Origin: Escherichia phage HH3
Sequence record: PP759150
Strand: one strand, 5' to 3'
DNA: 44,661 nucleotides
This document shows, piece after piece, positions 3,328 to 44,661 of the stretch; positions within the stretch are counted from its first letter, which is position 1, and each line of letters begins with the position of its first letter. Under the pieces are notes generated by a model. The model saw nothing but the letters and a program-made list of their open reading frames with translations, was not told the origin of the DNA and ran no database searches. The translations under genes were made by a program, and so were the position numbers.

Positions 3328-3486
3328 ATGGCACGTAAAGATGTTTGGGTATTGGCAATCTGGACCACCGCGGCTTTTATCGGCATGGTTATTTGCGAAT
3401 TGATATTGCCCGCCGCCATATGGACCGTGGTATATTGTCCACGGTCCACTAATCAGGAATTAATTAAATATGCACCCGCAAACTAA
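3328..3486 (+). CDS. small membrane protein (52 aa)
   Basis: RBS agaggag 8 nt upstream of ATG at 3328; hydrophobic core VWVLAIWTTAAFIGMVICELILPAAIWTVVY; 9-mer motif at 3299-3306 just upstream. Confidence 0.45.
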   Translation: MARKDVWVLAIWTTAAFIGMVICELILPAAIWTVVYCPRSTNQELIKYAPAN

Positions 3487-4612
3487 AATTACCGATGAGC
3501 AATTGATCGCAGAAATTCAGGCAGGGACTACGGTTAAAGAGATTGCGAAGAAATACGGCATTGCACTTCGAAATGTCTATATGCGCAAAGCCCGCCTATC
3601 GAAAAAGGGAATTGGTCACGGTAATGATGCCGTGATCCGTAAGCGAGTTGCAGATGGCTTCGGGGTTAAACGCGTGTCTGCCCTGGTGCGCGGTAATGGC
3701 GAAGAGGTCATGTCGTGGGTCATCACTGAGCAGGATAAGGAGCGCCAACTCGAAGCCATGCGCGCTGTGGTCGAGGGTATGAACAGCGAAATCACACCGG
3801 CAGCGCCCGTAAACGCCCCATGCCAGTATACCCAGGCGCTCGACTTGCTCAACCTGTACACTGTGTCCGACTTCCACCTGGGTATGCTGGCATGGGGCGA
3901 GGAGACTGGAGAAGATTGGGATATGGCGATCGCCGAAGACCTGTTCTACCGCTGGTTTGTCGAAGCCTTCGCACGCGCACCAGACGCAGGCACTGCCGTG
4001 ATCAACATCCTCGGGGATATGGCCCACTTTGATAGTCTCGATGCCGTCACCCCTGCCAGCGGGCACGTATTGGACGCCGACACCCGGTACCAGAAGTTGG
4101 TCCGCTACATGATTCGCATGGTGCGCAACGTCGTAGAACTTGCGCTGCAAAAACACTACAAAGTCAAACTGCTAATCGTCCAGGGTAATCATGACGAATC
4201 CGGTATGATTTGGCTTGCTGAGATGTTCAATACCTTGTATGAGAACGAGCCGCGCGTCGATGTGGACACGTCCCCGGACGTCTACAAAATGGTGCAGCAC
4301 GGTAAGACTACGCTATTTTTCCACCACGGGCACAAAGCGCGATTCGATGTTATCGAGCAGGTTATGATCGCTAAATTCAGACAGGCGTTCGGGGCGAGCG
4401 AATACAGCTACGCGCACGTAGGCCATTTGCACCACCAGAAGATTGTTGAATCCCGCAACATGATTGTTGAACAGCACCGGACGCTCGCAGCGAAAGACGC
4501 CTACGCCAGTCGTGGCGGTTGGATGTCCGGTCGCAGCGCAAACGTCATCACCTATAGCGCCAACTACGGAGAAGTAGCGCGCTTAACCATTAGCCCGGAA
4601 ATGTTGAAATGA
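3470..4612 (+). CDS. HTH domain fused to calcineurin-like metallophosphoesterase (Mre11/SbcD-like motif set), 380 aa
   Basis: N-terminal HTH-like TTVKEIAKKYGIALRNVY; phosphoesterase motifs SDFHLG, GDMAHFD, GNHDE, GHLHH in canonical order. Confidence 0.6.
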   Translation: MHPQTKITDEQLIAEIQAGTTVKEIAKKYGIALRNVYMRKARLSKKGIGHGNDAVIRKRVADGFGVKRVSALVRGNGEEVMSWVITEQDKERQLEAMRAVVEGMNSEITPAAPVNAPCQYTQALDLLNLYTVSDFHLGMLAWGEETGEDWDMAIAEDLFYRWFVEAFARAPDAGTAVINILGDMAHFDSLDAVTPASGHVLDADTRYQKLVRYMIRMVRNVVELALQKHYKVKLLIVQGNHDESGMIWLAEMFNTLYENEPRVDVDTSPDVYKMVQHGKTTLFFHHGHKARFDVIEQVMIAKFRQAFGASEYSYAHVGHLHHQKIVESRNMIVEQHRTLAAKDAYASRGGWMSGRSANVITYSANYGEVARLTISPEMLK

Positions 4613-30672: not shown

Positions 30673-30893
30673 TTCAATTCCTCAATAAGGGTGTATCGGG
30701 CGCTGCGCGCGGTTAAGGAGTTGCACACGAAATGGCAACGCCGAGTCATGACAAGCCAACCGGTGAGGTCAAGGCCCAGGATGTATTCGGGGCGAGACGC
30801 GCGCACCACACGATTGCGTCGCGGGTCGATGTTATAGTCTCTTAGCATTTGGTCTACGACCGCGGGGTCGCGGTCAACGATTAAGATATTCAT
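30669..30893 (-). CDS. hypothetical protein (74 aa)
   Basis: ORF, ATGA coupling with the HAD gene. Confidence 0.4.
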   Translation of the reverse strand: MNILIVDRDPAVVDQMLRDYNIDPRRNRVVRASRPEYILGLDLTGWLVMTRRCHFVCNSLTARSARYTLIEELK

Positions 30894-31359
30894 GTAACTC
30901 ACTCTCGCTCATTATTTCAATTTGTGCGCTGCCGATGGGCGGCGCTTCGTCAAATATTATTAATTGCTGGCACTTGTTATTGCTCGGACCGACTTCGCCG
31001 GTGGCGGCGTGAATGAATCTAATCCGCCAGTCCAGAAGAATTATCATATTGGCGGTATTCCGGGCCAGCTTCGCCCACTTAGTCGACGTGTCCTGATTCA
31101 GTAGCATGACGGTCCGGCGTCCGTGCGCTGCGCACTCGACCCACGGCAGCGGATCGGAATACGGCGGATTGCACCACTTCCACCCTTTCAACTCTGCCCA
31201 GTCCACATCAAGCGCGCTGTGCTCTGCCGTGAAGTAACGCGGTAGAAGGTGGTTGGCGTCGCTTGCCGCCATATCGTAACGGAATCGGTATTTCCGACGA
31301 AGCGGTTTAAATAACGCTGGCGGCGTGCGCCAGCTATCTTTTTGCTCATTCTTCGTCAT
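30874..31359 (-). CDS. DNA N6-adenine methyltransferase (phage Dam-type), 161 aa
   Basis: Catalytic motif NPPY in WKWCNPPYSDPLPW; N-terminal WRTPPALF pattern typical of small phage Dam enzymes. Confidence 0.8.
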   Translation of the reverse strand: MTKNEQKDSWRTPPALFKPLRRKYRFRYDMAASDANHLLPRYFTAEHSALDVDWAELKGWKWCNPPYSDPLPWVECAAHGRRTVMLLNQDTSTKWAKLARNTANMIILLDWRIRFIHAATGEVGPSNNKCQQLIIFDEAPPIGSAQIEIMSESELHEYLNR

Positions 31360-31804
31360 GGTCGGGGGCTATCGCGTACAGGGCGATATTGTTGCCTTTC
31401 TTCAGGACCCGCTGCACGCGCTTTGACTCCTCGGCGCTCATAGGGCGACCATGAAAATAGCCATTTGTGGGATTGCGCCACGCCACAAGCACCAGATCTT
31501 TACGGTCGATCTTAGACTGGCTACCCTTCGGACGCACGTACTCCTCGGCCCGTTTGCAATGCTCGCGCAGACCTTCGGCAGTGATGCGGTTTAGCGAGAC
31601 GGTGGTGGTGTATCCGGTGCGCTGCATAATACCCATCAATTTGAAAAGCAGTTCGAAGCGCTCCTCTAGCTCCTTGCGCATCTTTTCCTCGCCTTCATAG
31701 CTCGCCAGGTAGGTATCCGCCAACGCGTTCGCCCGTTCGGCTTGCTCGCGGGCTTCGAGGCATTGCGCGGCCCAGTAATCTTTTTCTTCTTGTAAAATTT
31801 TCAT
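31346..31804 (-). CDS. hypothetical protein (152 aa)
   Basis: ORF in replication block. Confidence 0.5.
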   Translation of the reverse strand: MKILQEEKDYWAAQCLEAREQAERANALADTYLASYEGEEKMRKELEERFELLFKLMGIMQRTGYTTTVSLNRITAEGLREHCKRAEEYVRPKGSQSKIDRKDLVLVAWRNPTNGYFHGRPMSAEESKRVQRVLKKGNNIALYAIAPDHDEE

Positions 31805-32110: not shown

Positions 32111-32434
32111 TTACGCATAAAAGTTAGGGTCGCGCGCTACGTCTACCAGATACAGGTTACTAATGCGGTTGCCGTAGTGGCCTGGTGTGCGCTGACGGCA
32201 CACTACGGCATAGCCTGGAGGGATTGTATTGCCAGTCTCAATAATCCACGCCACGCGTGCGCCAGACAGCGTCTTACCGTTGTATTCGATACGTGTTCCG
32301 CCATCGGCAGTGTTAAGGTTGCCAATCTTGCAGCCTGTGGACTTCAGGCGAATGACGCCGGTCTTGCTGTCGTATGAAAAAAGCTGATTGGTCATTGCCA
32401 CTGAAAAGTCGATGGCGTCGAATGTAGTATTCAT
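32111..32434 (-). CDS. HNH_3-like small protein (107 aa), possibly degenerate homing-endonuclease-like
   Basis: Pattern YNGKTLSGARVAWIIETGNTIPPGYAV...PGHYGNRISNLYLV resembles HNH_3 endonucleases but the canonical DH-NG core is altered. Confidence 0.45.
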   Translation of the reverse strand: MNTTFDAIDFSVAMTNQLFSYDSKTGVIRLKSTGCKIGNLNTADGGTRIEYNGKTLSGARVAWIIETGNTIPPGYAVVCRQRTPGHYGNRISNLYLVDVARDPNFYA

Positions 32435-33141
32435 TTTAAATTTTCCTCGTTAACCGCTATCGCGAAGCCGCGCGGGGTGAGTGAGCGGATTAATTTTGTA
32501 CGAGCGGATTTACCACCGAGGCGACTATACTGTTTCGAGTACCCTTTTTCAACGAAAACAGGTTTCTTCTCTGGCATACGGAAGCCGTTGCCGGTCCATA
32601 AGCAGGTCAGCTTCGGATATGAATCGCGGGCGTTGATGTATTCAGGGAATAACGGGTGTACGTCATCCTCTGGCAAATAGCCGCCATACTCCCACGGGTC
32701 AAACGAGTGGTCCGGCTTACGCCATTGAGTGGAGAGCACGCTGCGCGGATTCTCAATCATATATGGCACTTCGAAGAAATCGCCCAGGTAAGCGGCGATC
32801 TTCGCGGTGCGCACCGCCTTAAGCTGGAAGGCAGGGTCGCGGGCGCGTTTGCGCGGGAAAGCTGGCGCGCCGCTCACCGCCAGATCAGTACACGGCGGGA
32901 ATGCATAGATAATATCCGGCGTGCCGAAGTCGCCATTCATCGCGCGGTCCACGAAGTCCAGGTCAATAAACTCATTGCGATATCGGATACCGCGACCATA
33001 GATACGGTAATCAAGGTAAGACCCGTGATCGGCTTCGGAGTAGTTGAAGCAATAACACTTATGCCCCATCTCGGCAGCACGCTCAATCATCAAGCCGCTG
33101 CCGTCAAACAATGACCAGATTGTCATTTTAGCAATAGTCAT
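32431..33141 (-). CDS. compact DNA C5-cytosine methyltransferase-like protein (236 aa) with variant motifs
   Basis: Motifs in C5-MTase order: I SLFDGSG, IV FPPCTD (PC-T instead of PC-Q), VI ENP (instead of ENV), VIII-like QWRKP; about 100 aa shorter than typical C5 MTases. Confidence 0.55.
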   Translation of the reverse strand: MTIAKMTIWSLFDGSGLMIERAAEMGHKCYCFNYSEADHGSYLDYRIYGRGIRYRNEFIDLDFVDRAMNGDFGTPDIIYAFPPCTDLAVSGAPAFPRKRARDPAFQLKAVRTAKIAAYLGDFFEVPYMIENPRSVLSTQWRKPDHSFDPWEYGGYLPEDDVHPLFPEYINARDSYPKLTCLWTGNGFRMPEKKPVFVEKGYSKQYSRLGGKSARTKLIRSLTPRGFAIAVNEENLK

Positions 33142-34562
33142 TTGCGCGCCTTTTTAGCTTTCATGTACTCCATCAAGTCGTCCTGTATATCTCGCTTACT
33201 GTCGCGACGCTCGGCGACCAGTTCGTCCAGTGTCCCGCGCGCCTGGATAATATAGACGAATACTGGACGGGGGTGTCCGGCTTGCATCTGGCGAACCGGC
33301 CCGATACGCTCCACGATCTGCGAAAAGTGCTCAAAGTTCCAGGTGTCTGAGAAGATAGCAAGGTGGTGTCCGCCGTCCTGCAGGTTGAGGCCGTGGCCCG
33401 CCGATGCCGGGTGCGCAAACATGATGGGGATCTCGCCCCTGTTCCACGCTTCCATATCCTTATTGCCCTGCTTGCCCTTGCCCAACGCAACGCCGTGCGG
33501 GAATTTCTTCTTGAGACGCGCCAGATCATGCTTGTACTGGTACGCGACGAGCAACGGTGCGCCGTTCAACTCCTCCACGATACTTTCCAGCGCGTCCAGT
33601 TTAGCGTCGTGAATTTTCACCCATTCGTCGGTCCGTTCGCCGTCTTCGTCGACCTTATACACGGCCCCGGAAGCAAGCTGAAGGCACTTAATGGTCTTCG
33701 AAGCAGCGTTCGCCGCCTCCACCGTTCCGCTTTCCAGTTCGGCAAATAGCTCCGCTTCGAACTGGTCATAAATCTTGCGGGCTTTCTTCGGCAGGTCCAC
33801 TACAACCGGCGTATAGATTGGCTTGTCACATCCGAAGTATTCAGCCGCATCAACGGTGAGCGACACGTCGGACAGGCGTTGTTGTATTTCTTTCTCGGAG
33901 TTCTTAAGCGGGGCGTGCTGCATAGAAAAGCTGCCAGGCTTAACAGGCTTGCTAATAAACCAGCGATCCGTGAATGCCTTATAACTACTGCCGAGACGTT
34001 CGCCGCCATCGACAAACCACGTCTGACCCCACAGGTCTTTCAGTCCGTTTGGTGCGGGTGTGCCGGTGAGGTTAATCCATCGCTTGACGTGCTTATGGGC
34101 AATCGCCGCCAGTGCGCGGGCGCGCTTACTCCCCTGCTTGCTTCTATAGCCTTTCAGCTTAGTGGATTCATCGGCAACAACGACCGTAAAGGGCCACGCA
34201 TCGCCGTAATAGTCAACCAGCCACTCAACTACATCATAGTTAACACAAACCACGTTAGCGTCGCTCTCGAGAGCAGCAATGCGGTCCTTCTCTGGTCCTG
34301 TGCCGTCTACTACCAGCAGGGCGGGGAAGCGCCATTTCTCCTGCTCCGGGGGCCATGTACCGGACGCAACGCGCAGCGGGGCCAGCACCAGTACGCGGTC
34401 CTCCTGGTTGGACAGGATACCAGTCTGGAACATTTTATTCAGTGCCCACATGGTCGCGCCAGTTTTACCCGACCCCATTGTCGCCCATATATTGCATCGC
34501 TTATGCTTGAGGATGAACGCGGTTATCAACTTCTGATATTCGCGACGTCGGAAACGTGCCAT
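33138..34562 (-). CDS. SNF2/DEAD-like superfamily 2 helicase (about 474 aa; start at ATG 34562)
   Basis: Walker A MGSGKTGAT, DExx-like VVADEST, C-terminal helicase domain; track ORF over-extended to 34652. Confidence 0.75.
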   Translation of the reverse strand: MARFRRREYQKLITAFILKHKRCNIWATMGSGKTGATMWALNKMFQTGILSNQEDRVLVLAPLRVASGTWPPEQEKWRFPALLVVDGTGPEKDRIAALESDANVVCVNYDVVEWLVDYYGDAWPFTVVVADESTKLKGYRSKQGSKRARALAAIAHKHVKRWINLTGTPAPNGLKDLWGQTWFVDGGERLGSSYKAFTDRWFISKPVKPGSFSMQHAPLKNSEKEIQQRLSDVSLTVDAAEYFGCDKPIYTPVVVDLPKKARKIYDQFEAELFAELESGTVEAANAASKTIKCLQLASGAVYKVDEDGERTDEWVKIHDAKLDALESIVEELNGAPLLVAYQYKHDLARLKKKFPHGVALGKGKQGNKDMEAWNRGEIPIMFAHPASAGHGLNLQDGGHHLAIFSDTWNFEHFSQIVERIGPVRQMQAGHPRPVFVYIIQARGTLDELVAERRDSKRDIQDDLMEYMKAKKARK

Positions 34563-34566
34563 ATCT

Positions 34567-34785
34567 TTATTCCGCCTTTTTCCAGACTTCTGTCTCACTG
34601 TTCCAGTTCCTTTTTGTGGCGTCGTAGTTGGTGCGGTGACCGATGTGCACACCCGTCGCCCGGAAGCTCTTAAATTTTTGCCAGCACACCGTTAACGGCA
34701 GCGGGTTATTCATGCCTGCGATAAACCATACGCGATCGCCTGGTTTGCATTCGCCCAGTGTGGTGAGTCGATAATGTTCTTTCAT
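34567..34785 (-). CDS. hypothetical protein (72 aa)
   Basis: RBS gggaga 9 nt upstream of ATG 34785. Confidence 0.4.
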   Translation of the reverse strand: MKEHYRLTTLGECKPGDRVWFIAGMNNPLPLTVCWQKFKSFRATGVHIGHRTNYDATKRNWNSETEVWKKAE

Positions 34786-34796
34786 CGTCATGTCTC

Positions 34797-34821
34797 CCAA
34801 AAATGGCGGGACAAGCCCGCC
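34797..34821 (-). terminator. hairpin GGCGGGACAAGCCCGCC with T-run on the minus strand
   Basis: Contains the same GCGGGACA unit as the iteron elements. Confidence 0.5.
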
Positions 34822-34828
34822 GTATTAA

Positions 34829-35002
34829 TTATTTTTGCTCTGCGCGGTAGCGGCGCTGCCGTTCGCGCTCTTTCTTATTGCGGCACGATTTGCACTCGGC
34901 CCGATACCCGTCTGGACTGCGCGCAGTCTTTCCGGTGTATTTGTGGAACTGGGAAAGCGGTTTAACGCAACCGCAATTACTGCAGCGTTTTTCTTCAATC
35001 AT
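34829..35002 (-). CDS. small zinc-ribbon protein (57 aa)
   Basis: CSNCGC ... CKSC four-Cys arrangement; RBS gagga. Confidence 0.5.
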   Translation of the reverse strand: MIEEKRCSNCGCVKPLSQFHKYTGKTARSPDGYRAECKSCRNKKERERQRRYRAEQK

Positions 35003-35042
35003 TTCTAAAATCCTCGATAGTGCTAACCTGCTCACTATACTG

Positions 35043-35321
35043 TTAAGCGACCAATTCAGCAACCAATAAATCACAGTCGGCTATGTTGTCTATGACGCGA
35101 ACGTCCGCACCGCGGCGGGCCATTCGCTCATGTTCTCGTACCTGGTGCGGCTTCGGTTTGCCACCGGGGCGCTTCACCTCGACGAACACTATTCTGCCGT
35201 TGATGATGATTATCAGGTCTGGCGCACCTGCTCGCCCCTCCCACGCCACTTTGCGGCAGAATCCGCCGACGGCTTTCACCCGTCTCATCAAGTGACTTTG
35301 AATCTTGCCTTCGGGTGTCAT
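35043..35321 (-). CDS. VRR-NUC domain nuclease (92 aa)
   Basis: GAPDLIII ... VFVEVKRPGGKPKPHQ motif; start overlaps the Pol I stop. Confidence 0.7.
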   Translation of the reverse strand: MTPEGKIQSHLMRRVKAVGGFCRKVAWEGRAGAPDLIIIINGRIVFVEVKRPGGKPKPHQVREHERMARRGADVRVIDNIADCDLLVAELVA

Positions 35322-37612
35322 TATTTTCTGTACCTGTACATAATGTCGCCTTCCGCGGCAAGCGGGAAGCCTTTCGCCCAAACCGGCAGGTCGCACATCA
35401 GCGCGCACAACTCCTCAGTTGTGTAGTCGTCGGTATCCGGCACTTCGGTTATCAGTTCATCGTGTACGGACAGTACGATCTCATATCCCGCAGCTTCAAC
35501 GCCAGGCATGGACCATGCGAGGATATCGCGACACAGCGCCTGCACGATGTTCTCTGTCAGTTTGCCGCCGTAGGTGTACTGGGATCCCCACTGGCGCGTC
35601 GTCTGATTCTCACCCTGGTATTTAATGCGGGTGCTGGTGCGTTTCTTGCCGGTGTCGTCGTCGATCTCGGTCGTCACTGACAGCGCAATGCCTGGATAAC
35701 TCATAATACGCCCAGACGGCAACTCAATTTTCAACCACCACCCCGCGGCGTTCGGGTCGTCGCGTTCCTCGTCGAAGGTTGGGTCATGCTTCGCCTTCGT
35801 GCGGACTATCTTGAGCGCTTTCTTTCCATCCGGGCGAACGTTCGCTCCAGCCCAGTACGCTTTGCCCGGATTGCGGATTGCACACAACACCGCGTCCTCA
35901 AGCTCGGCCCAAAAAGCTACCGTCTTCGGGTGAGCCTCGCGCCACATGCGTTTAATCGCATCACACGTAAGCCATACGTTTTTCGGCAGTATGTAAGTCG
36001 GACGCTCGTCCTTCTTGCCCGGCTTCGGCGGGCGCTTAGCTTCGTTAATGCGGGCATACTCATAACCACGTTTCGCCGCGGCCCAAATGTGATCGGGGAA
36101 TGTGCCCTTCATCACGTCAGCCATCGCATAAAGGTCGAGGCCCAGGTTTTTAGCGAACTGCAAGAACGCCGCCACGCCGCCGCCATAGCCTAGTCCCAAC
36201 TCACACGCCTTACCGATCTGGCGTAAGTCTTTGCGGTTGGCTTTAATGTATTCCGGATCGAGGCCGAACATCTTACCGGCAGTCTCACAATAAATATCGC
36301 GACCGGCCCTAAACACCATTAGCGCGGTTTTCTCTCCAGCGATCCAGGCGAGGCCACGCCCTTCCACGTTGGAGTAGTCCGCCACGACAAACTTCTTACC
36401 CTTCGCCGGAATAATGCACCCGCGAACAGTCGAGGCTGTTAGCTTCGATATGTCATACGCCCAGTGCGCTGTCCCGCGTAACAGGGAGTTGATGCCGTTG
36501 GTGAGCATGTGCGACCGGACCCAAAAAGAAACGTCGCTCTCGCCTTCACGGCGTTTAATCTTCCCTTCGTGGTCATCACTATACTCGCCGCGTGCCAGGT
36601 TTTGCGGCTGGAAGCCTTTACCAGCCCAGCGCAGCGTGCGCTTTGCCCCACCATACTGAAGACAACCACGGCGGCGACCATCGGAAGACAGGCCATTTAC
36701 GAGCGGATTGTACTTAGTCGATGCCGTTGATGATGCCCCGAGGCGCATCTCGATAAGCACTTTGCCTTCGTCTGGGAAGTCCGGGTCTTCCAGCAGGTCG
36801 TTAAGTGTGGACTTCTGCGCGTTGTGGATCGTGAACGCAGGCGCGAGGTCGCGCAGCGCGGGCAAGAAGTCATTGCCGGTCAGCTTACCGCCGAAGCGCT
36901 CCCAGGCTTCTTCCTTCAATTCTTCTTTATGCGCCTGTACCGCTTTGATCGCGGCGTTCGCCAGATCAACGTCCACGTAGAAGCCGCGGTCGTTGATCAA
37001 CTGGTCAATAAGCAGGATTTCGTCTTCCTTCGGCGTGTTGCCCCAGTCCGGTATGCGCCAATAGACTTCCCTCATAGCGATGATATCCAACGCGGCATAG
37101 CGAAGGAATTTAGCCCACTCCTCTGGGTGCGTCTCGCGCGTGTAGCGGCGGATTTTGTAGGTCTTAGGGGTAGGCTTACAGAATCGTTTGATCAGCGCCT
37201 TGCCCGCCTTATCCTTCGCGTGCTCTGCATCAACGCCCAACACCTGACACTGCATATCGAGGCCGCCCGGCAACGCGTGCCGAAAGGCCATAATCATGGT
37301 GTCTTCGATCTGGCACACGGGGAGGTCAATGCCCCACTTCTCGCGAATAACCAGGCGGTCAAACAGGAGGCCGTTAGCCATCACGATTTTTGCTTTCTTG
37401 CGGGATACCCGGCGGAGCGCCTTGCGCAGTTCACGCGGCATTGTGGGGGACTCGGTGCAATCCCACGTTTGCACGCGGCCCTCGTCGATGGCGTATGTGC
37501 AAATCATAATCTCAGTAGTTGGGTGTTCCGCGTAGGCGTATGCGCCCACTTTCTTCAGATCCACCCCGCTAAATGTCTCGGTATCGAGAAACAGGCGTTC
37601 AAAGTCTTTCAT
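35321..37612 (-). CDS. DNA polymerase I (family A) with 3'-5' exonuclease domain, 763 aa
   Basis: Exo I motif FLDTET near N-terminus; C-terminal motif C region SVHDELI; size. Confidence 0.9.
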   Translation of the reverse strand: MKDFERLFLDTETFSGVDLKKVGAYAYAEHPTTEIMICTYAIDEGRVQTWDCTESPTMPRELRKALRRVSRKKAKIVMANGLLFDRLVIREKWGIDLPVCQIEDTMIMAFRHALPGGLDMQCQVLGVDAEHAKDKAGKALIKRFCKPTPKTYKIRRYTRETHPEEWAKFLRYAALDIIAMREVYWRIPDWGNTPKEDEILLIDQLINDRGFYVDVDLANAAIKAVQAHKEELKEEAWERFGGKLTGNDFLPALRDLAPAFTIHNAQKSTLNDLLEDPDFPDEGKVLIEMRLGASSTASTKYNPLVNGLSSDGRRRGCLQYGGAKRTLRWAGKGFQPQNLARGEYSDDHEGKIKRREGESDVSFWVRSHMLTNGINSLLRGTAHWAYDISKLTASTVRGCIIPAKGKKFVVADYSNVEGRGLAWIAGEKTALMVFRAGRDIYCETAGKMFGLDPEYIKANRKDLRQIGKACELGLGYGGGVAAFLQFAKNLGLDLYAMADVMKGTFPDHIWAAAKRGYEYARINEAKRPPKPGKKDERPTYILPKNVWLTCDAIKRMWREAHPKTVAFWAELEDAVLCAIRNPGKAYWAGANVRPDGKKALKIVRTKAKHDPTFDEERDDPNAAGWWLKIELPSGRIMSYPGIALSVTTEIDDDTGKKRTSTRIKYQGENQTTRQWGSQYTYGGKLTENIVQALCRDILAWSMPGVEAAGYEIVLSVHDELITEVPDTDDYTTEELCALMCDLPVWAKGFPLAAEGDIMYRYRK

Positions 37613-37779
37613 TGCTTAATCCTCACCACGGCGTCAGCACTGCCGATCATGGAGAAGATACCGTCGGAAAGGGTAATCTCCTCGCCGTTGTTGCGAATCT
37701 CGGCAACTGTGAAATATTCGCCCAGCATTTTGGACCATACTCGCATTCCGACTTTTACTTCGCTGGCTTTAATGCGCAT
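37609..37779 (-). CDS. small hypothetical protein (56 aa) coupled to Pol I
   Basis: Hand-translated; stop overlaps Pol I start (ATGA); RBS agga. Confidence 0.4.
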   Translation of the reverse strand: MRIKASEVKVGMRVWSKMLGEYFTVAEIRNNGEEITLSDGIFSMIGSADAVVRIKQ

Positions 37780-37795
37780 TTTTCATTGTCCTATT

Positions 37796-37817
37796 AAAAA
37801 GCCCGCATTAAGCGGGC
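37796..37817 (-). terminator. rho-independent terminator (minus strand)
   Basis: gcccgc-attaa-gcgggc with TTTTT on the minus strand. Confidence 0.65.
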
Positions 37818-37837
37818 TTGAATAGTGGGCTTTGCCC

Positions 37838-38626
37838 TTAACGGCGACGTTTACGCGGTGCTTTGTCTTCGTCGTCGTCGTCGTCGTCGTCGTCGTCCTC
37901 ATCTTCGTCATCGCGTGGCTTACGACGTTTGCGAGGTGTTTCATCATCGTCGTCATCGCGGCGCTTGGACTTTTTGGACTTGCGCGGCTTGTCGTCTTCA
38001 TCATCGTCATCGCGACGTTTTGACTTTTTGGACTTGCGCGGGCTTTCATCTTCGTCATCGTCGCCCAGGTCCTCGTCCGAGCAAGAAGACCCGCCACCGC
38101 CGAAGGCTTCACCGTCATCACGGAAGCGTAACCCCAGCAAGCCCGCACCGAGTCCCTTGCCGTTGGTATTGTTCCACGCCCAAATATCCAGGGACACGTT
38201 GCAATAACAACCGGAGTAGATCTCCTGGCCTTCAATCTCGTCGCCTTCTACGGTCAGACCCTGTTCGGTCTGCTTCTCGCCGAGTGACGTTTGAATGATC
38301 GGCTGTTTGAACGATTTGGCGTTGATGTACAACATGCCTTCGAATTCTTCGGTTACTTCGTCGCGCTCGTCACCGTCGCGAACTGCGCATTCCTTAGAAT
38401 CCTGGGCGTAGTGGCGGTCCATCCACTTATCAGCATTCTTCTCGGATTTCAGCTTGTCGGTGAGCACTGCGCGCGCTGCCGCTTCCACTTTGTCCACCTG
38501 CGGATCTTCTTTATCAAGAAGAATCACTGCACGGTATGCCGGTTTTTGTCCATCCTGTTTAGGGGTATCGCGCTCCCAAATTTTAAGGAAACATACGCGC
38601 ACATTTTTCAGGTTGACTTTAGCCAT
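37838..38626 (-). CDS. putative ssDNA-binding protein (gp2.5-like / DUF2815-like) with C-terminal poly-Asp and Lys/Arg-rich tandem repeats
   Basis: N-terminus MAKVNLKNVRVCF; position between Cas4-like nuclease and Pol I (a module order I recall as common in phages); start at ATG 38626 with RBS gaggaa. Confidence 0.5.
   Translation of the reverse strand: MAKVNLKNVRVCFLKIWERDTPKQDGQKPAYRAVILLDKEDPQVDKVEAAARAVLTDKLKSEKNADKWMDRHYAQDSKECAVRDGDERDEVTEEFEGMLYINAKSFKQPIIQTSLGEKQTEQGLTVEGDEIEGQEIYSGCYCNVSLDIWAWNNTNGKGLGAGLLGLRFRDDGEAFGGGGSSCSDEDLGDDDEDESPRKSKKSKRRDDDDEDDKPRKSKKSKRRDDDDDETPRKRRKPRDDEDEDDDDDDDDDEDKAPRKRRR
37857..38070. repeat. In-frame tandem repeat (about 57-bp unit x2 plus GAC/GTC triplet run) inside the SSB-like gene
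   Basis: cgtcgtcgtcgtc run and duplicated ...gactttttggacttgcgcgg... unit. Confidence 0.7.
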
Positions 38627-38716
38627 TTTCCAATTCCTCATTCTCGCATGTATCGGGGTTATTATGAGCCACCCCGTTCGGCTTGGTTGCTAATCTACTT
38701 GGTTGCGCCTGGGTGG

Positions 38717-38959
38717 TCAAGCATTTTCATTAAAAAGATTTCGGGTCACGTAGTTGGTGGCGTTCTCGACCCAGCTTAGCGGCGGGCGTTCGATGTTCTT
38801 TTCCACCCAATAGACGGCAGCTTCGCTATAGCCGTCGTCCAGCCAGCGGGTCGGGTGGCGAATCATCCAGGCCACCATTAACACGCCTTGCACACAATGC
38901 AGGATAAAGCCCAGTGCGCCGAGCAAAAACATCAATAAGATTGCGAATACTTTATTCAT
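38717..38959 (-). CDS. small membrane protein (80 aa)
   Basis: Two hydrophobic segments FAILLMFLLGALGFIL and VLMVAWMI. Confidence 0.5.
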   Translation of the reverse strand: MNKVFAILLMFLLGALGFILHCVQGVLMVAWMIRHPTRWLDDGYSEAAVYWVEKNIERPPLSWVENATNYVTRNLFNENA

Positions 38960-40382
38960 TGCTTAAGTCCTCGTCTGTAGCTTCCGACCACGCAGGGCGC
39001 GGGTCGTCGATTGGTGCTAACACAGGTTTAGCGGGTGCGCGTGTGATTTTAGCACACAGCTTCGCCCACACTTTCGGTTTTTCGTCCTTCAGCACCTTCT
39101 CGGCATCTGTCGGGCTGAGCAATGTTTCTTTGTACATCACATCGCGCTTGATCCGGGCCTTCGTGAATATTTCAATCACTTCGCTCTCGTCCGCCCACTT
39201 ACGGATCCCTTCCTTACCGGCAACCATCTTAAGGCCCAACGATTCGCCATCGCCCGCCATGACCGCCTTGAATACCGCGGATTCGATAGCTTTGATGTGC
39301 TGGCGCATTGCGTCAAGTCCTTCATAAGCCTTGCGCAGTTCCGCCGCGCTCATAGCGCCTGGGGTGGATTCCTTCTTGCCCCGTTTAGCACGTCGGGCAG
39401 CCTTCCGGGCTTCGCGGGCCATATTGCGGTCGTGGTTGGCGCACTCTTCCTCGGTTGCCACGCTCACGTCGTCGCCCAGGTCTTCGTCGGTTGCCGTTGG
39501 TGGCGTCATCGTGTCGATTGCGGCCTTCGCCCGGATGCTGCACTGGTCCGCAAATCTGCACCACTGGCACGCATCGACGCTGGGCCGGAAGTCGGCGCGG
39601 GTTAGTCCCTTCTTGCCGCGGGCGTATGCATCGAGCGCGGCGATAGCACGCTTGGACGCAAACGTCGCGAATATCTCCAGCGCTTCCACTGAGATATCCC
39701 ACTCTGACGCCCCGCCGCAATACGGCTGGAAGATGACCAGGCGCACGGTCGTAATGTCATACATGGTTTGCAGCTTGCGCAGCAGTCCGAGCGCGTACAA
39801 CATAAGCTGTTTGTTTTCTTTCGCCTCGACCTTATGCCGCCCGGTCTTCAGGTCGCCAACAATCAGCATGTACGTGCCATCGGTCTTCTTCGTGACCATG
39901 ACCATATCGGCAGTGCCGAACGTCTTAACCTTGTTACCGTCGATCTCGACTCCTGGGTGGAGGACGCGGGTGAGATCGGCGCGCATCTCAAGCTGGACAA
40001 ACTCCGCCACTTCGAGGAGCGGTCGCCAGTGGTCGATGTACGCGTCGCACTGTTTCACCATATCGTCGTTGACCAGTACGCCGCCTTTCGGTGCTTTCGG
40101 GTGCGCCTTTACTGGCCCCTTGCCTTCATTCTCGACGTAACACCCTTTATACGTCTTTGCTGTTATCAGCTTTTCACCGGCGATAATGCGGTTTAGCACC
40201 ACTTCAGATACGGTGTGCATACTCGTACCATTAATCGCGGCCTGTCCTGATTCGTTCGGGATATCTTTTTCGACCACCAGGGCGGCGGGACACCCCATCC
40301 ATTTTTTAGCACCGGATGGGCCAAGTAATGAGTGTTCCGTATTGCTACCGGATTGCGTTTTACGTTTTGGTTTAATCGCCAT
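38952..40382 (-). CDS. PD-(D/E)xK exonuclease, Cas4/RecB-like (DUF2800-like), 476 aa
   Basis: N-terminal HSLLGPSGAKKWMGCP signature; C-terminal Cys cluster CQWCRFADQC. Confidence 0.65.
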   Translation of the reverse strand: MAIKPKRKTQSGSNTEHSLLGPSGAKKWMGCPAALVVEKDIPNESGQAAINGTSMHTVSEVVLNRIIAGEKLITAKTYKGCYVENEGKGPVKAHPKAPKGGVLVNDDMVKQCDAYIDHWRPLLEVAEFVQLEMRADLTRVLHPGVEIDGNKVKTFGTADMVMVTKKTDGTYMLIVGDLKTGRHKVEAKENKQLMLYALGLLRKLQTMYDITTVRLVIFQPYCGGASEWDISVEALEIFATFASKRAIAALDAYARGKKGLTRADFRPSVDACQWCRFADQCSIRAKAAIDTMTPPTATDEDLGDDVSVATEEECANHDRNMAREARKAARRAKRGKKESTPGAMSAAELRKAYEGLDAMRQHIKAIESAVFKAVMAGDGESLGLKMVAGKEGIRKWADESEVIEIFTKARIKRDVMYKETLLSPTDAEKVLKDEKPKVWAKLCAKITRAPAKPVLAPIDDPRPAWSEATDEDLSNE

Positions 40383-40570
40383 TATTCCACCCTTGAAAAC
40401 TGAGCAATGTAATAGTCATGTTTAACACCGGCCCGCTTCGCGGCTTCGTTCATGGTAGCCGCCAAACCTCTGGCTTGAGTCCAGCAGCAATTCCAGTTCT
40501 GATTCATAACGATTTCTGGTTGCGCATCGCCGGTAATACGGCAGCGAAATAAAACGAAAAATATAGCCAT
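40382..40570 (-). CDS. hypothetical protein (62 aa)
   Basis: RBS gggaga. Confidence 0.4.
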   Translation of the reverse strand: MAIFFVLFRCRITGDAQPEIVMNQNWNCCWTQARGLAATMNEAAKRAGVKHDYYIAQFSRVE

Positions 40571-40822
40571 TTATTTTGTCTCCCAGCGGTCAATTGTTTT
40601 TGCTTCGGATGCAACGGCGAAACGAACATATTCCGGATTTGAATCCGCCCAAATATAAAAGTCTGGATTGGTAAATGTGGTGCGCTTAATTTGCGCGGGG
40701 GTGTTACGGCGTTTATCTATTACGGCAACGCGTGACTGAAAGCTGCCGATACGTTCGAATAGCCAATAATATGGGCGCTGGTCGCGGGAATCCACCGCCT
40801 CGATTAGCGTGAAGCGTGCCAT
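40571..40822 (-). CDS. hypothetical protein (83 aa)
   Basis: RBS gaggacgag; follows terminator. Confidence 0.45.
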   Translation of the reverse strand: MARFTLIEAVDSRDQRPYYWLFERIGSFQSRVAVIDKRRNTPAQIKRTTFTNPDFYIWADSNPEYVRFAVASEAKTIDRWETK

Positions 40823-40833
40823 TGTCTCGTCCT

Positions 40834-40862
40834 CTAAAAAGAGGCCCGCAGATTAGCGGGCC
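40834..40862 (-). terminator. rho-independent terminator (minus strand) after the first early gene
   Basis: ggcccgc-taatct-gcgggcc followed by TCTTTTT on the minus strand. Confidence 0.65.
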
Positions 40863-40870
40863 GTATAATA

Positions 40871-41386
40871 TTAGTCTTCCAGTTCGAAATAGGTTTCTAC
40901 GATTTCTTTAAGTTCTGTGTGGAAGTCCGCCACGTCGTCGTCTTCCAGTTTAGCGATTGATTTGATCTCGAACGATTCCAGCAGGTCGTCGAATTCGTCG
41001 TTCGCATCGTCATCATCACCGCCTGCGATAATCGCGGCATACTGTTTGATCTCGTCGCGCATCTCCGCCAGCGGATCGGCATCTTTCTCACCTTTGCCTT
41101 TCGCTGGTGCTTTTTTACCCTTCGCCGGTTTTTCGTCTTCGGCGTCATCCTCGTCGTCATCATCCTCTACGACTTCTTTTTTGGCCTTACCTTTCGCCGG
41201 GGCTTTTTTGGTTTTCGCTGGTGCTTCGTCTTCAGCGTCGTCATCTTCTACGACTTCTTTTTTGGCCTTAGACGGCTTTTTATCTTCCTGCTTACCAACG
41301 GCAGCGCCAACGGTTTCATAATGTTTAGCGATGATTTCCAGTGCTACTACGCCGCGAGTGATCAGGTTTACGATTTGCTCAAACAT
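40871..41386 (-). CDS. highly acidic early protein with tandem mixed-charge repeats (171 aa), candidate DNA mimic
   Basis: Start ATG 41386 with RBS ggag; repeats EVVEDDDAEDE...PAKGKAKK; first gene downstream of the leftward early promoter. Confidence 0.55.
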   Translation of the reverse strand: MFEQIVNLITRGVVALEIIAKHYETVGAAVGKQEDKKPSKAKKEVVEDDDAEDEAPAKTKKAPAKGKAKKEVVEDDDDEDDAEDEKPAKGKKAPAKGKGEKDADPLAEMRDEIKQYAAIIAGGDDDDANDEFDDLLESFEIKSIAKLEDDDVADFHTELKEIVETYFELED

Positions 41387-41789
41387 GGTATATCTCCGAT
41401 TGGTTAAGTTTAGGTGTCGACAGTTAACTTCGTCGGTGGCCTTAACATAGTGCCTGGTTGCGCGTTCTCCCTTTCGGGTAGTGGACCAGGTTATATAATC
41501 ACGGTTGGGAATCCTGACACTTCGATCCGGCCCCTGCGTTGCCCCTCTCCAGTTTGCGTCCTGCATCCTGTCGACGGGGTGAATAATAGATTGGTTGCAG
41601 GATAGGTGTCAACAACTAATTTCAAAAAAAAAAGCGCCGAAGCAAAATGCGACGGCGCTAACCAATAAGAGACAATGAGACGGGAGTATTATTACACGCG
41701 TGCGCGCCCGTTTCAATATCCCAAAGGATTTGACACCTTGCGGTTTTAGGTGTAGTTTCGTTGGTCATTAACCAACTGGGGGCAGAGCA
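41387..41789. promoter_or_regulatory. Divergent early control region: leftward promoter (TTGACA at 41612-41607, TATTAT at 41589-41584, 9-mer in the spacer), rightward promoter (TTGACA 41730-41735, TAGTTT 41753-41758), GTCGAC-containing inverted repeats
   Basis: Hexamers read directly; region separates divergently transcribed replication genes. Confidence 0.5.
41623..41659 (-). terminator. rho-independent terminator on the minus strand inside the control region
   Basis: agcgccg-13 nt loop-cggcgct followed by ten T on the minus strand. Confidence 0.6.
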
Positions 41790-42119
41790 ATGAATGTAAA
41801 CGACGCAATCGAAATGTTAACGAAGACTGTTAGCAGTGAAACAAGCCGGTCCTGGGCTTATACCGATGCCGTTGGGGCGGTGTTATTTGAGGTCGAGCGC
41901 CTGCGCAGTGTAGAAAAAGAATTACGCGCCAGGCTGGAATTGCTCAACGGTACGGCGGCGAGCAAGCTACAAAAACACAATGAAGAAATGGAAGAATACA
42001 AAAAACAGGTTATCCGTTTACGTGATGAGGGGAAGTCATGGGCAATGATCGCGGAGTTGACAGGAATTAATCAGAGCACCGTGCGATCCTGGGTACGCAA
42101 TAACAAAACTTCTAAGTAA
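41790..42119 (+). CDS. HTH DNA-binding protein (109 aa), candidate transcription regulator
   Basis: C-terminal helix-turn-helix-like WAMIAELTGINQSTVRSW; first gene of the rightward early operon. Confidence 0.55.
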   Translation: MNVNDAIEMLTKTVSSETSRSWAYTDAVGAVLFEVERLRSVEKELRARLELLNGTAASKLQKHNEEMEEYKKQVIRLRDEGKSWAMIAELTGINQSTVRSWVRNNKTSK

Positions 42120-42129
42120 GGCCACGGCA

Positions 42130-44394
42130 ATGAGCTTAATTAAATTCGCTGTAACACGACCCGCTAAAAAAGGCGAAAAAGCCAGGGCGGAAAACTTCCA
42201 GATGACAACTGATGAATTTTTCGAATTTATCAATGACGCGAAAGAAATCTCATCGGTGCACATCAACAAGACCGAGGATAAAGCCGAGTATGCGCGCCGC
42301 AAGCGCAAGGCCGATGGCATCGTGGCATATACCAGTGACGGCCTACGCCGTAAGACCAGCGCGGTGGACCGCTCGATCCTGTTCTTTGATATTGACCGCA
42401 CCGACACTCGCACCTTGCGCCGCTGCCGTAAGGCTTTCATCGACGCGGGCCTGGAACACGTATTCCACACCACAACCGGCGACCGTCACCCACTGAAAGG
42501 CGGCACGCGTTGCGCCCGTTTCCTGGTGTTGACGGACAAGCCTGTCCCGGCGGAAGACCTGGGCCGTGTCCAGTATGCGCTATTACACCAACTTGGTCTG
42601 TCAGATGTGGACTTCGACGATTGCACGAAAGACACAAACCGCCTGATGTACCTGCCGCACCAGCAATCGGTTATTAAGTGCCACTACGGCAAACGTGCCA
42701 ATGTGCGGCGTCTGCTCCGCCTGGCGGACAAGCTGGGGGTGGAGAAAGAGGAAGTACGCCGCGAACTAACCCAGGGCGACGACGAAGTGGCTGACGGCAT
42801 TCTTGATTGGTGCTTTCAGGCTGGATTCGAGCCACTATCGTCCGGGCGTGGCTATGAAGTGCCGTGTCCGAACGAACATCTGCACAGCGGCGAAGGGTCG
42901 ACGGCTATCATGGTCAAGGATGGCGAGATCCGTTTCAAGTGTATGCACACCGGAAACGAGTGTTGCTCGGAACTGAACCGACACCAGCACCTGGCGCTAC
43001 GTCTTATCGGGATCCCGGACCACCTGAACGTCGAGCCACACAATATGTCCCGTAAGCAAATCGCCGCCATCCTGCCAGGTCTGGACGACGAGGAAGTCGA
43101 ATCCTTATATGATCACATTGTTGATGCGGTTGGCGACGGCGAAGAATATGGCGTGTGCACCGATGCGGATCTGGATAACGAGCCGGTTGCGCTGTTCAGT
43201 AAGCACGACCCGATCATCGAAGGTCTGATTAACTTCAAATCGACCTGGTATATGGCGGGCGAGTCGAACATCGGCAAGTCCTTCTATGTGCTGGGGCAGA
43301 TGGGCGCGGTTGCCGCGGGTATCCCGTTTGGCGGTGCGAAGGTCGTCCAGTCTCATTGCTTCTATTTCGACGCGGAAGGCGGCGAAGCCTCCAACCAGCG
43401 CAAAGAAGCATTGCAGATTAAATACGAGCACGACCTCGACAAGCTGCACATTATCGATCTGCAGTCACGCGGATGGGATATCACCAGCAAGTCCGGTTTG
43501 CGCGAAGTTATCAGCTATATCAACCGCACTGCTAACGGCGAGCCGGTCGGCCTGGTGGCGTTCGACTCACTCAACCAGACTGTTGCGCTGCGGTCCGCCG
43601 AGGCTAAACCGTTCGACGAGAACAACGCCAGCGATATGGGTGAAGTAGTCAAAGCGCTGAAAGCCATTGCGGAAAACACGGGCGGCAGTGCGGGCGTCAT
43701 CCACCACCCGGCGAAGGGTGCAAACGGCAGCAGATCCCCGCGTGGGTCCGGTGCGCTTCATGGCGCTGTCGATTCCGCTTTCTTCCTGGAACAGCCGGAC
43801 GACAACCAGCCGGGGCAATTGAACCTTTATCACGAAAAGTCACGTAACGGCATCAAGCAAGCGCCGCGTGGCTTCGTCCTGCTCAAGTGCAAGGTGGCGG
43901 TAGATCTCCGCAAGTCAGAAGCGTTCGCGTCGCACCAGTCCACCAGCACCGGGCCAGACTTCGGTGACGTAGTTGCTGGTTGGGACGTCAAACCAATTGC
44001 GTCCACCCCGCGCGACGAGACTTTATACCTCGTACCGGTCGCCCTGGCACCGTTCGCTATAGAACAGGCGAAGGCCGCAGGAAAAGCCGCAGTTAAGGAA
44101 GAGAACACCGCCGGACCGCGCACCGAAAAAGAGAAAGTGCTTTATGCGGCCCTGGAAAAACTGATGGAAGATAACCCGGACCATACTGGTTTCAGTAAAT
44201 CGGCAATCGTCCGCCAGGCGGGACTCGCAAAGGGTGGCACTTCGACGAAGGCAATAGACGATATGGTCGAGCGCGGCGTGATTGGTTTCTATACAGACCC
44301 GCACACCGGGGCCATATATGGGTCATCGAATTTAGTCATTAAATCGGATATCCCCATTACACTTTCTGCGACCGATGACGACCTGAAAGATTAA
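42130..44394 (+). CDS. primase-helicase (AEP-type primase-like N-terminus, zinc-binding region, P-loop ATPase C-terminus), 754 aa
   Basis: LFFDIDRTD acidic motif, Cys cluster CPNEHLHSGEGS...CMHTGNECC, Walker A GESNIGKS, Walker B LVAFDSLNQ. Confidence 0.7.
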   Translation: MSLIKFAVTRPAKKGEKARAENFQMTTDEFFEFINDAKEISSVHINKTEDKAEYARRKRKADGIVAYTSDGLRRKTSAVDRSILFFDIDRTDTRTLRRCRKAFIDAGLEHVFHTTTGDRHPLKGGTRCARFLVLTDKPVPAEDLGRVQYALLHQLGLSDVDFDDCTKDTNRLMYLPHQQSVIKCHYGKRANVRRLLRLADKLGVEKEEVRRELTQGDDEVADGILDWCFQAGFEPLSSGRGYEVPCPNEHLHSGEGSTAIMVKDGEIRFKCMHTGNECCSELNRHQHLALRLIGIPDHLNVEPHNMSRKQIAAILPGLDDEEVESLYDHIVDAVGDGEEYGVCTDADLDNEPVALFSKHDPIIEGLINFKSTWYMAGESNIGKSFYVLGQMGAVAAGIPFGGAKVVQSHCFYFDAEGGEASNQRKEALQIKYEHDLDKLHIIDLQSRGWDITSKSGLREVISYINRTANGEPVGLVAFDSLNQTVALRSAEAKPFDENNASDMGEVVKALKAIAENTGGSAGVIHHPAKGANGSRSPRGSGALHGAVDSAFFLEQPDDNQPGQLNLYHEKSRNGIKQAPRGFVLLKCKVAVDLRKSEAFASHQSTSTGPDFGDVVAGWDVKPIASTPRDETLYLVPVALAPFAIEQAKAAGKAAVKEENTAGPRTEKEKVLYAALEKLMEDNPDHTGFSKSAIVRQAGLAKGGTSTKAIDDMVERGVIGFYTDPHTGAIYGSSNLVIKSDIPITLSATDDDLKD

Positions 44395-44407
44395 ATTTTG
44401 CGCGCAT

Positions 44408-44468
44408 TGGTTGCCATTTTGAGTGTTTTTAGCCGGTCGCATTGGTTGCCGTGTAGTGTAAATATAAT
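44408..44468 (+). promoter_or_regulatory. Two direct CATTGGTTGCC copies followed by a consensus TATAAT hexamer
   Basis: ttggttgcc at 44408-44416 and 44442-44450, tataat at 44463-44468. Confidence 0.45.
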
Positions 44469-44474
44469 GCATAG

Positions 44475-44661
44475 TTATGCAATAAAACTGCATAAAGTAG
44501 GCGGGACAAAAAGCGGGACAGACCAGGGGCGGGACAAAGCGGGACAGCACCCCGTCCCGCCCCGGATGACGCGGCCTGGAGAGGAGCGGGACAGCGGGAC
44601 AGCACCCCAGTCTTTCAGACTAGACGGGGGTCAACGGCCCCCCTCGTCTGAGACTGCATAA
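44475..44661. repeat. Repeat element copy B: six or more CGGGACA units plus terminal hairpin (44608-44656) ending in CTGCATAA at the window edge
   Basis: Aligns with 16827-17013 over 187 bp; hairpin arms identical and only the loop differs by two bases. Confidence 0.85.

Follow-up and report, generated by a model that had tools for sequence, protein, structure and literature searches.

Early replication and recombination genes of Escherichia phage HH3, with an AEP-type helicase-primase and a basic-ended single-stranded DNA-binding protein

We have analyzed a 44,661-nt stretch of DNA from Escherichia phage HH3 (sequence record PP759150; the window, below), centering on the minus-strand genes at positions 35043-40382, on a helicase gene to one side of them and on a divergently transcribed helicase-primase gene to the other. 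This region is, with high confidence, the early replication-recombination module of a virulent Escherichia coli siphophage from the genus Dhillonvirus. As a feature it is not new: the module has been published, and the HH3 genome has been deposited and annotated. The genes with which we are mainly concerned are listed here, with the basis for each call.

38952-40382, minus strand: DUF2800 nuclease of Cas4/RecB type (Pfam and PHROG, motifs, fold)
38717-38959, minus strand: conserved 80-aa open reading frame (ORF) with a hydrophobic N-terminus (PHROG 11211, labeled ‘unknown function’, E 5e-52)
37838-38626, minus strand: protein that binds single-stranded DNA (SSB), of T7 gp2.5/Enc34 type, 262 aa (Pfam, PHROG 112)
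37609-37779, minus strand: conserved 56-aa ORF (PHROG 10102, E 2e-42)
35321-37612, minus strand: family A DNA polymerase, 763 aa (Pfam, PHROG 17, motifs)
35043-35321, minus strand: VRR-NUC nuclease, 92 aa (Pfam, PHROG 93 and 5702, motif)
33138-34562, minus strand: SNF2-type (superfamily 2) helicase or DNA translocase, 474 aa (Pfam, PHROG 62, motifs)
41790-42119, plus strand: small helix-turn-helix DNA-binding protein of 109 aa, its gene opening the rightward operon (Pfam)
42130-44394, plus strand: helicase-primase, 754 aa (Pfam AAA_25, PHROG 3228, fold)

Pfam matches were judged against the gathering score of each family, with PHROG profiles serving as a second library. An initial annotation of this DNA had proposed a nuclease, an SSB-type protein, a family A polymerase and a VRR-NUC protein in that order; the ORFs are present at the coordinates it gave, their order is borne out on the minus strand, and their family matches lie far beyond chance. 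The homology scans upheld all of its functional labels, with no reassignment to an unrelated function. All seven module proteins that we submitted are exact matches to HH3 GenBank entries (range XAM99529-XAM99542), and the catalytic motifs are all intact and are invariant in distant homologues.

The 476-aa nuclease matches the entire DUF2800 profile (PF10926; positions 1-368 of 368), with 220.7 bits where 21 would suffice (E 4e-65), and also matches PDDEXK_1 (34 bits against 22; E 4e-8). It combines an N-terminal PD-(D/E)xK domain of the Cas4/RecB family with a helical C-terminal half that is specific to DUF2800. The catalytic residues D159, D177-L-K179 and Q192xxxY196 are invariant in homologues down to 26% identity, as are, among the homologues, C31, C272, C275 and C281, which form a C...CxxCx5C pattern of iron-sulfur type. 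These four cysteines are putative 4Fe-4S ligands; the segments that carry them have low pLDDT in our structure model, which was built from a shallow alignment and is of moderate quality. The protein has no sequence relative in the PDB; fold comparison with solved members shows a resemblance to the end-resection nucleases AdnAB, AddAB, Dna2, RecE and lambda Exo. Since Pfam and PHROG scans found no cas genes among its neighbors, the protein is Cas4-like but is not a CRISPR-associated Cas protein. The HH3 deposit labels the 100% identical protein ‘exonuclease’. The last residues of the nuclease (38952-38975, minus strand) form a short acidic tail, ...TDEDLSNE, in which D472 is invariant, and distant homologues end in ...DDFDDLD, ...EDDFDKL or ...DEDDDDEV, resembling the tails of SSBs; this C-terminus may be a partner-binding peptide.

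The SSB matches Enc34_ssDNA-bd (PF10991, formerly DUF2815) at positions 2-172 of 176 (108.3 bits against 26; E 4e-31) and PHROG 112, ‘Gp2.5-like ssDNA binding and annealing protein’ (E 5e-52). It is identical to XAM99535.1, which the HH3 record labels ‘hypothetical protein’. Enc34 ORF6, a DUF2815 protein, is a structurally proven gp2.5-type SSB that binds ssDNA and promotes annealing (PMC5686142); by analogy with it and with T7 gp2.5, the HH3 protein probably binds ssDNA and may well anneal it. The SSB of the related phages SECphi4 and SECphi18 triggers Retron-Eco8, and escape by SECphi4, SECphi6 and SECphi18 maps to the SSB or to its promoter (bioRxiv 10.1101/2022.08.27.505566).

The polymerase, identical to XAM99533.1 (‘DNA polymerase I’), scores 60.3 bits against the DNA_pol_A cut-off of 34.3 and matches PHROG 17 with E 6e-131. 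The motifs of an N-terminal 3'-5' proofreading exonuclease domain are present (Exo I, D10xE12; Exo II, N80xxxFD85; Exo III, Y172xxxD176), as are polymerase motifs A (D412YSNVE), B (R464xxxK468...Y476G) and C (H717DE). Pfam gave no match to a 5'-3' exonuclease (FEN) domain in the protein, in which Exo I already stands at residue 10; NCBIfam Pol I equivalog models reach 53-57 bits against cut-offs of 600-720, so that the enzyme is not a full-length bacterial Pol I. Residues T13, E91, R171 and D176 of the exonuclease domain are the sites of escape from Borvo in SECphi4 and SECphi18 (bioRxiv 10.1101/2022.08.27.505566), and the HH3 polymerase has the same residues at the same positions. We also observed that the polymerase of phage vB_EcoS_PS2 (L002 6328-9516) is 1062 aa long, owing to a 299-aa insert exactly between K468-A469 and C470 in motif B. 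The insert opens with Cys and closes with His-Asn, and the next residue is Cys, a set of junction residues that marks inteins; a Pfam scan of it returned no intein model, and from its junction residues we call it intein-like. HH3 carries the insert-free allele (Cys470 codon at 36203-36205).

The VRR-NUC protein, scored on the ORF 35043-35408, passes VRR_NUC (PF08774) marginally (25.8 bits against 23.8); it also matches PHROG 93 (E 7e-32) and PHROG 5702, ‘Holliday junction resolvase’. It has the motif PD34...E48VK50, is identical to XAM99532.1, and is a putative resolvase of branched DNA. The SNF2-type protein, identical to XAM99529.1, scores 42.3 bits against 24.9 for SNF2-rel_dom and matches PHROG 62, ‘DNA helicase’ (E 2e-157); in the 474-aa form the Walker A motif GSGKT lies at 30-34 and a DEST box at 131, and the Helicase_C C-lobe scores 17 bits against a cut-off of 23.5. 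The ORF call for this gene was 33138-34652; the start annotated in relatives gives 33138-34562, the coordinates that the initial annotation had used, and its SNF2 label is likewise supported.

The primase-helicase that the initial annotation had described as divergently transcribed is confirmed on the plus strand, where PHROG 3228, ‘replicative helicase-primase’, covers the protein over its full length and AAA_25 scores 71 bits against 27, with a Walker A motif (GESNIGKS) at 377-384. It comprises a primase domain at about residues 1-350, a P-loop helicase domain of RepA/DnaB-like type at about 357-580, and a domain at the C-terminus. For the N-terminal 350 residues neither Pfam nor, even by profile, the PDB sequences gave a match; by fold comparison they have the catalytic fold of archaeo-eukaryotic primases (AEP). 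D87xD89 and D163 are invariant in 13-18 members of the helicase-primase family, as expected of the AEP acidic triad, for which they are candidates, and are followed by a conserved Cys/His motif of zinc type (CPNxxxH...FxCxHxxC). The primase is therefore of AEP type, unlike the TOPRIM-type primase of T7 gp4, and has a RepA-like helicase joined to it in one protein. Homologues of the primase domain numbered one match in a word-indexed search and only 25 clusters in an exhaustive single-sequence search; a profile made from these matches then detected homologues in most of the distant module-bearing loci (E 1e-15 to 1e-22), and the idea of a very narrow primase family was dropped for that reason. 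HK578, another Dhillonvirus, escapes P2 OLD through changes in the helicase-primase, in its operon promoter, and in a gene beside the exonuclease and SSB genes (bioRxiv 10.64898/2026.07.10.737580).

The gene preceding the helicase-primase encodes a protein with a C-terminal helix-turn-helix (HTH_23, E 4e-7, and Sigma70_r4_2), and both Klebsiella phage KPN U2874 and Rhodobacter phage RcPescado have an equivalent gene next to that of the primase. The HH3 record names the product ‘transposase’; the names given in relatives are ‘resolvase’, ‘DNA recombination nuclease inhibitor gamma’ and ‘HTH protein’. For 41790-42119 only the helix-turn-helix is supported, and the other names look like propagated mis-annotations.

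The genome belongs to the genus Dhillonvirus. Megablast of 33000-44661 retrieved 189 phage records, of which the best was Dhillonvirus sp. EcoIv6a_Kente (94.7% identity over 100% of the query), followed by SSL-2009a, JL1, EK99P-1 and others at ∼92-93%; positions 1-25000 of the window show ∼92% identity over 98-99% to Dhillonvirus genomes, so that the two stretches together give 92-95% identity over 98-100%. The structural half encodes lambda-type tail genes (a Tape_meas_lam_C tape measure, gpM-, gpL- and gpK-like proteins, and a gpJ-like tip protein), and the taxonomic hint of the initial annotation, which had combined the replication genes with a lambda/T1-type tail module, holds. Two records assigned to other hosts, ‘Campylobacter phage A144’ and ‘Acinetobacter phage NJ01’ (MG065648.1 and OQ221563.1), share more than 92% identity with E. 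coli Dhillonviruses across the 11.7-kb stretch, and their host labels look questionable.

The module had also been described as common in phages, and it is. A tblastn search with the nuclease found matches in 1407 of 50,697 phage records, from hosts that include Salmonella, Escherichia, Streptococcus, Staphylococcus, Bacteroides and Rhodobacter, and a duf2800-gp2.5-polA module has been named in phages of both Gram-positive and Gram-negative hosts (PMC8093625); the replication module of Enc34 has been described as well (PMC5686142). We gathered 80 IMG/VR loci by alignment of their DUF2800 homologues (25-98% identity), and scanned their ORFs with hidden Markov models made from the module proteins; distant SSBs, when aligned, diverged too far to serve for scanning loci. 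The SSB gene lies directly downstream of DUF2800 in 72 of the 73 loci with room for it, the polymerase follows this pair on the same strand in 54 of 61, and the order DUF2800, SSB, PolA, VRR-NUC, SNF2 occurs on one strand in 44 of the 49 loci that extend at least 7 kb downstream. In a subgroup of the loci (L036-L041, L046, L054, L061 and L065) the ∼1.8-kb gap between SSB and VRR-NUC showed no family A polymerase; it may encode another polymerase or primase, or one that has diverged strongly. The Guernseyvirinae have the same module layout at 39-68% protein identity, and the nuclease-SSB-polymerase core occurs in a temperate Staphylococcus Triavirus. An AEP-helicase homologue lies near the module in 53 of the 80 loci. 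Its gene stands between polymerase and VRR-NUC on the same strand in distant relatives (many of L042-L087), upstream on the same strand in Kagunavirus, and upstream but divergent in Dhillonvirus; the place of the primase gene has thus shifted, in a gene order that is constant in other respects.

The SSB is the place where HH3 departs from the textbook picture, and the only one; we regard it as a modest variation, not as a new system. T7-type SSBs have been described with an acidic C-terminal tail that contacts replisome partners (PMC5686142). In HH3 the OB-fold core carries instead a mixed-charge tail of ∼75 aa (37838-38062), built on an 18-aa unit that is encoded by a 54-nt tandem repeat (37929-38062). 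The final 60 residues include 29 D/E and 23 K/R in alternating blocks, ending ...KAPRKRRR, so that the protein lacks the canonical acidic C-terminus with a hydrophobic or aromatic end. Tail length differs between strains. Canonical acidic ends are found in the SSBs of KPN U2874 (...DEDDDV), SAP11 (...DDEDFL) and RcPescado (...ESLLDF), and in 34 of 74 complete SSBs from the IMG/VR loci. Basic ends (PRKRRRR, PRRERRRR, PRRRRR) account for 18 of the 74, all in the Dhillonvirus/Guernseyvirinae clade. A third class is Gln/Pro/Ala-rich and neither acidic nor basic (e.g. ...NPITGLPM), with the end motif ...(I/V)(N/D)P(I/L)TG(L/M/Q)P(M/L/Y) (L042, L045, L047-L051, L053, L055, L059, L062, L068 and L086). 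We know of no study of the basic-ended mixed-charge tail. That the repeat-expanded polyampholyte tail of the Dhillonvirus/Guernseyvirinae clade, ending PRK(R/K)RR, couples the SSB to the replisome or to DNA in a different manner is a tentative suggestion that we think is rather unlikely to hold. Conceivably, a partner role has passed from the SSB tail to the conserved acidic end of the DUF2800 nuclease.

The module genes are arranged in two divergent operons that run out from a single conserved control region (41387-41789). The minus-strand row is compact, with stop and start codons overlapping at four junctions: that of the 62-aa leader ORF with DUF2800, that of DUF2800 with the 80-aa ORF (whose start overlaps the DUF2800 stop by 8 nt), that of the 56-aa ORF with the polymerase (ATGA), and that of the polymerase with VRR-NUC (TAATG). 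These four overlaps are consistent with one translationally coupled leftward operon. The 80-aa ORF had no detectable homologue in the Guernseyvirinae and Casjensviridae loci that we compared. The VRR-NUC start is most likely the ATG at 35321 (92 aa, as in SSL-2009a and in the HH3 deposit) and probably not the GTG at 35408; the SSB start is probably the ATG at 38626, which gives 262 aa, where the ORF call had run to 38641.

From the families concerned (T7 gp4, gp5, gp2.5, gp6 and gp3; RSF1010 RepA and RepB'; Cas4/AddB) we propose how the module may work. The helicase-primase would unwind the fork and synthesize primers, the polymerase would extend them with proofreading, and the SSB would coat the single-stranded template. 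The nuclease would resect DNA ends, which the SSB would pair in an annealing role, so that resection and annealing could lead to recombination-dependent replication and concatemers. VRR-NUC would cleave branched intermediates before packaging, and the SNF2 motor would remodel forks or branches. Defense-escape genetics in close relatives, involving Retron-Eco8, Borvo and P2 OLD, fit a central role of the module in replication. The initial annotation had credited the phage with a largely autonomous replication apparatus. This calls for a qualification: a primer-removal enzyme, a credible ligase, a clamp, a clamp loader and a topoisomerase were all absent among the ORFs scanned, and host functions are therefore still needed. 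The host would presumably supply primer removal, ligation and control of supercoiling.

Several points weigh against this account of the module. The polymerase is divergent: only ∼90-110 residues, spanning motifs A-B, align to Taq or Klenow by sequence, and ∼240 residues separate motifs B and C. The SSB has no acidic, hydrophobic-ended tail, the element by which T7 gp2.5 contacts polymerase and helicase, and coupling within the replisome may differ from that of T7. The division of labor among the nuclease, VRR-NUC and the SNF2 helicase is drawn by analogy, and an origin of replication was not located. A different reading of the same genes is that the DUF2800 nuclease and the gp2.5-type protein form mainly a two-component recombinase, like lambda Exo/Beta or T7 gp6/gp2.5, and are not part of a replisome, the ‘module’ then being two adjacent systems. 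We judge this possible, though it commands well under half of our confidence. The description of PHROG 112 reads ‘ssDNA binding protein and ssDNA annealing protein’, DUF2815 has been classed among single-strand annealing proteins with no separate ssb gene nearby (PMC8093625), the nuclease resembles end-resection enzymes in its fold, and the nuclease-SSB pair is the tightest linkage in the module. Yet the scanned ORFs include no other SSB gene, so that, barring use of the host SSB, this one has to act in replication as well; T7 gp2.5 performs both roles; and the regular presence of the polymerase behind the pair on the same strand argues for one functional unit. The recombinase and replisome readings mostly overlap and are not mutually exclusive.

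Two further alternatives concern single proteins. Were the helicase-primase a T7 gp4-like fusion of a DnaG/TOPRIM primase with a DnaB-type helicase, it would suit the T7-like logic of a replisome with a gp2.5-type SSB, a family A polymerase and a fused primase-helicase, and the protein does have weak PHROG matches to ‘DnaB-like replicative helicase’ and ‘DNA primase/helicase’; given the AEP fold and acidic residues of its primase domain, we consider this very improbable. Hardly credible, too, is a reading in which the polymerase is one of a special-purpose clade, for instance the DpoZ enzymes that incorporate aminoadenine, and the module serves to make modified DNA. DpoZ enzymes are likewise siphovirus family A polymerases, the NCBIfam DpoZ model (NF038380) weakly matches the exonuclease domain (E 1e-4), and two DNA methyltransferase genes lie downstream in the operon of the polymerase; but the polymerase scores 20.9 bits with the DpoZ model, whose cut-off is 500, the Pfam and PHROG scans, which covered part of the ORFs in the window, turned up no purZ-like gene, and the close relatives are ordinary E. 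coli phages that laboratories use widely.

Around and upstream of these genes lie the following further features, the leader ORFs being those of the leftward operon.

41387-41789, between the leftward and rightward operons: divergent control region (promoter-like sites, conservation)
40871-41386, minus strand: 171-aa leader protein, first gene of the leftward operon
40571-40822, minus strand: 83-aa leader ORF
40382-40570, minus strand: 62-aa leader ORF
37797-37826, minus strand: hairpin and U run resembling an intrinsic terminator, directly after the SSB gene

The control region is 97% identical in SSL-2009a and PS2, as compared to a genome average of ∼92-95%. Leftward promoter-like sites lie at 41612-41583 (TTGACA-18-TATTAT) and 41716-41688, and a rightward TTGACA at 41729-41734. 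Deletion of the corresponding promoter region in HK578 leads to escape from P2 OLD (bioRxiv 10.64898/2026.07.10.737580). Between the leftward sites stands a GC-rich hairpin followed by ten U residues (41625-41660, minus strand), kept in SSL-2009a and PS2; together with the promoter-like site at 41716-41688 it could yield a transcript of ∼55 nt. Scanning the entire window for Rfam families and for tRNAs gave nothing, and this hairpin element has no Rfam match. The 194-nt leader of the leftward operon folds no better than shuffled sequence (z -0.27), with one possible compensatory change between relatives. Another promoter-like site (38720-38692) lies upstream of the SSB gene, and the terminator-like hairpin behind that gene, AAGCCCGC-UUAAU-GCGGGCUU-UUU, has a folding energy of -24.6 kcal/mol over 51 nt (z -4.5). 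A second terminator-like hairpin lies among the leader genes (40843-40862; -17.2 kcal/mol, z -5.7). The three leader genes match PHROGs 3127, 4965 and 9934, all labeled as of unknown function, and the Guernseyvirinae encode homologues of the 171-aa and 83-aa proteins (30-33%) in the corresponding place. In the 171-aa protein, duplicated acidic blocks alternate with Lys-Ala-Pro-rich stretches (KKEVVEDDD...PAKGKKAPAKGK); a 231-aa ORF call for its gene is an upstream extension.

Other DNA-processing genes lie elsewhere in the window. Downstream in the leftward row are two DNA methyltransferase genes (30874-31359 and 32431-33141, minus strand), one of Dam type (Pfam Dam, E 1e-36) and the other matching PHROG 757 and no Pfam family, accompanied by an HNH endonuclease gene and a gene resembling polynucleotide kinase/phosphatase. 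The 152-aa product of 31346-31804 (minus strand) is called ‘DNA ligase’ by PHROG 10530 and by several GenBank records and has no Pfam match; this label is doubtful, 152 aa being far below the length of known ligases. Shortly upstream of the terminase genes, 3470-4612 (plus strand) encodes a calcineurin-like phosphoesterase, termed ‘DNA repair exonuclease’ in SSL-2009a, which is possibly Mre11/SbcD-like and may represent a further DNA-processing function far from the module.

For annotation, the ‘hypothetical protein’ label of the HH3 SSB and the ‘transposase’ label of the helix-turn-helix gene can be improved, and for the helicase-primase there is now a fuller description, an AEP-fold primase in fusion with a RepA-like helicase. 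Module proteins are sensed in relatives by Retron-Eco8, Borvo, Hachiman and P2 OLD, and correct annotation helps to predict the sensitivity of HH3 to these systems.

Compared with other Dhillonviruses (HK578, SSL-2009a, JL1, EK99P-1, SECphi18 and PS2), HH3 has identical gene content, order and orientation in this region, and differs at the level of alleles, for example in the length of the SSB tail repeat. The module proteins of SSL-2009a are 91-99% identical to those of HH3, against a nucleotide identity to Dhillonvirus genomes of 92-95%; HH3 lacks the additional 192-bp ORF that SSL-2009a has between polymerase and VRR-NUC, as it lacks the polymerase insert of PS2. The Enc34/Chi-like phage KPN U2874 (Casjensviridae) shares the layout, with primase and helix-turn-helix genes divergent from an exonuclease(DUF2800)-DUF2815-polymerase-endonuclease-helicase row, and five of its proteins are homologous to those of HH3 at 25-34% identity; its primase shows no similarity to the HH3 helicase-primase by tblastn, and its SSB, unlike that of HH3, has the canonical acidic tail. 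The RepB' primase and RepA helicase of the IncQ plasmid RSF1010 are separate proteins, whereas the 754-aa HH3 protein fuses the two functions and adds the Cys/His motif and the C-terminal domain; sequence similarity between them is below significance. With T7 (gp4, gp5, gp2.5, gp6 and gp3), HH3 shares the logic of a fused primase-helicase, a proofreading family A polymerase, an SSB/annealing protein of gp2.5 fold, an exonuclease and a junction-cutting endonuclease. The parts differ: the primase is TOPRIM in T7 and of AEP fold in HH3, the exonuclease is of FEN type (5'-3') in T7 gp6 and of Cas4/RecB type in HH3, the resolvase is endonuclease I in T7 and, as a candidate, VRR-NUC in HH3, and a thioredoxin-binding loop was not identified in HH3. 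The mixed-charge, basic-ended SSB tail and the extra SNF2 helicase complete the distinction of HH3 from T7.

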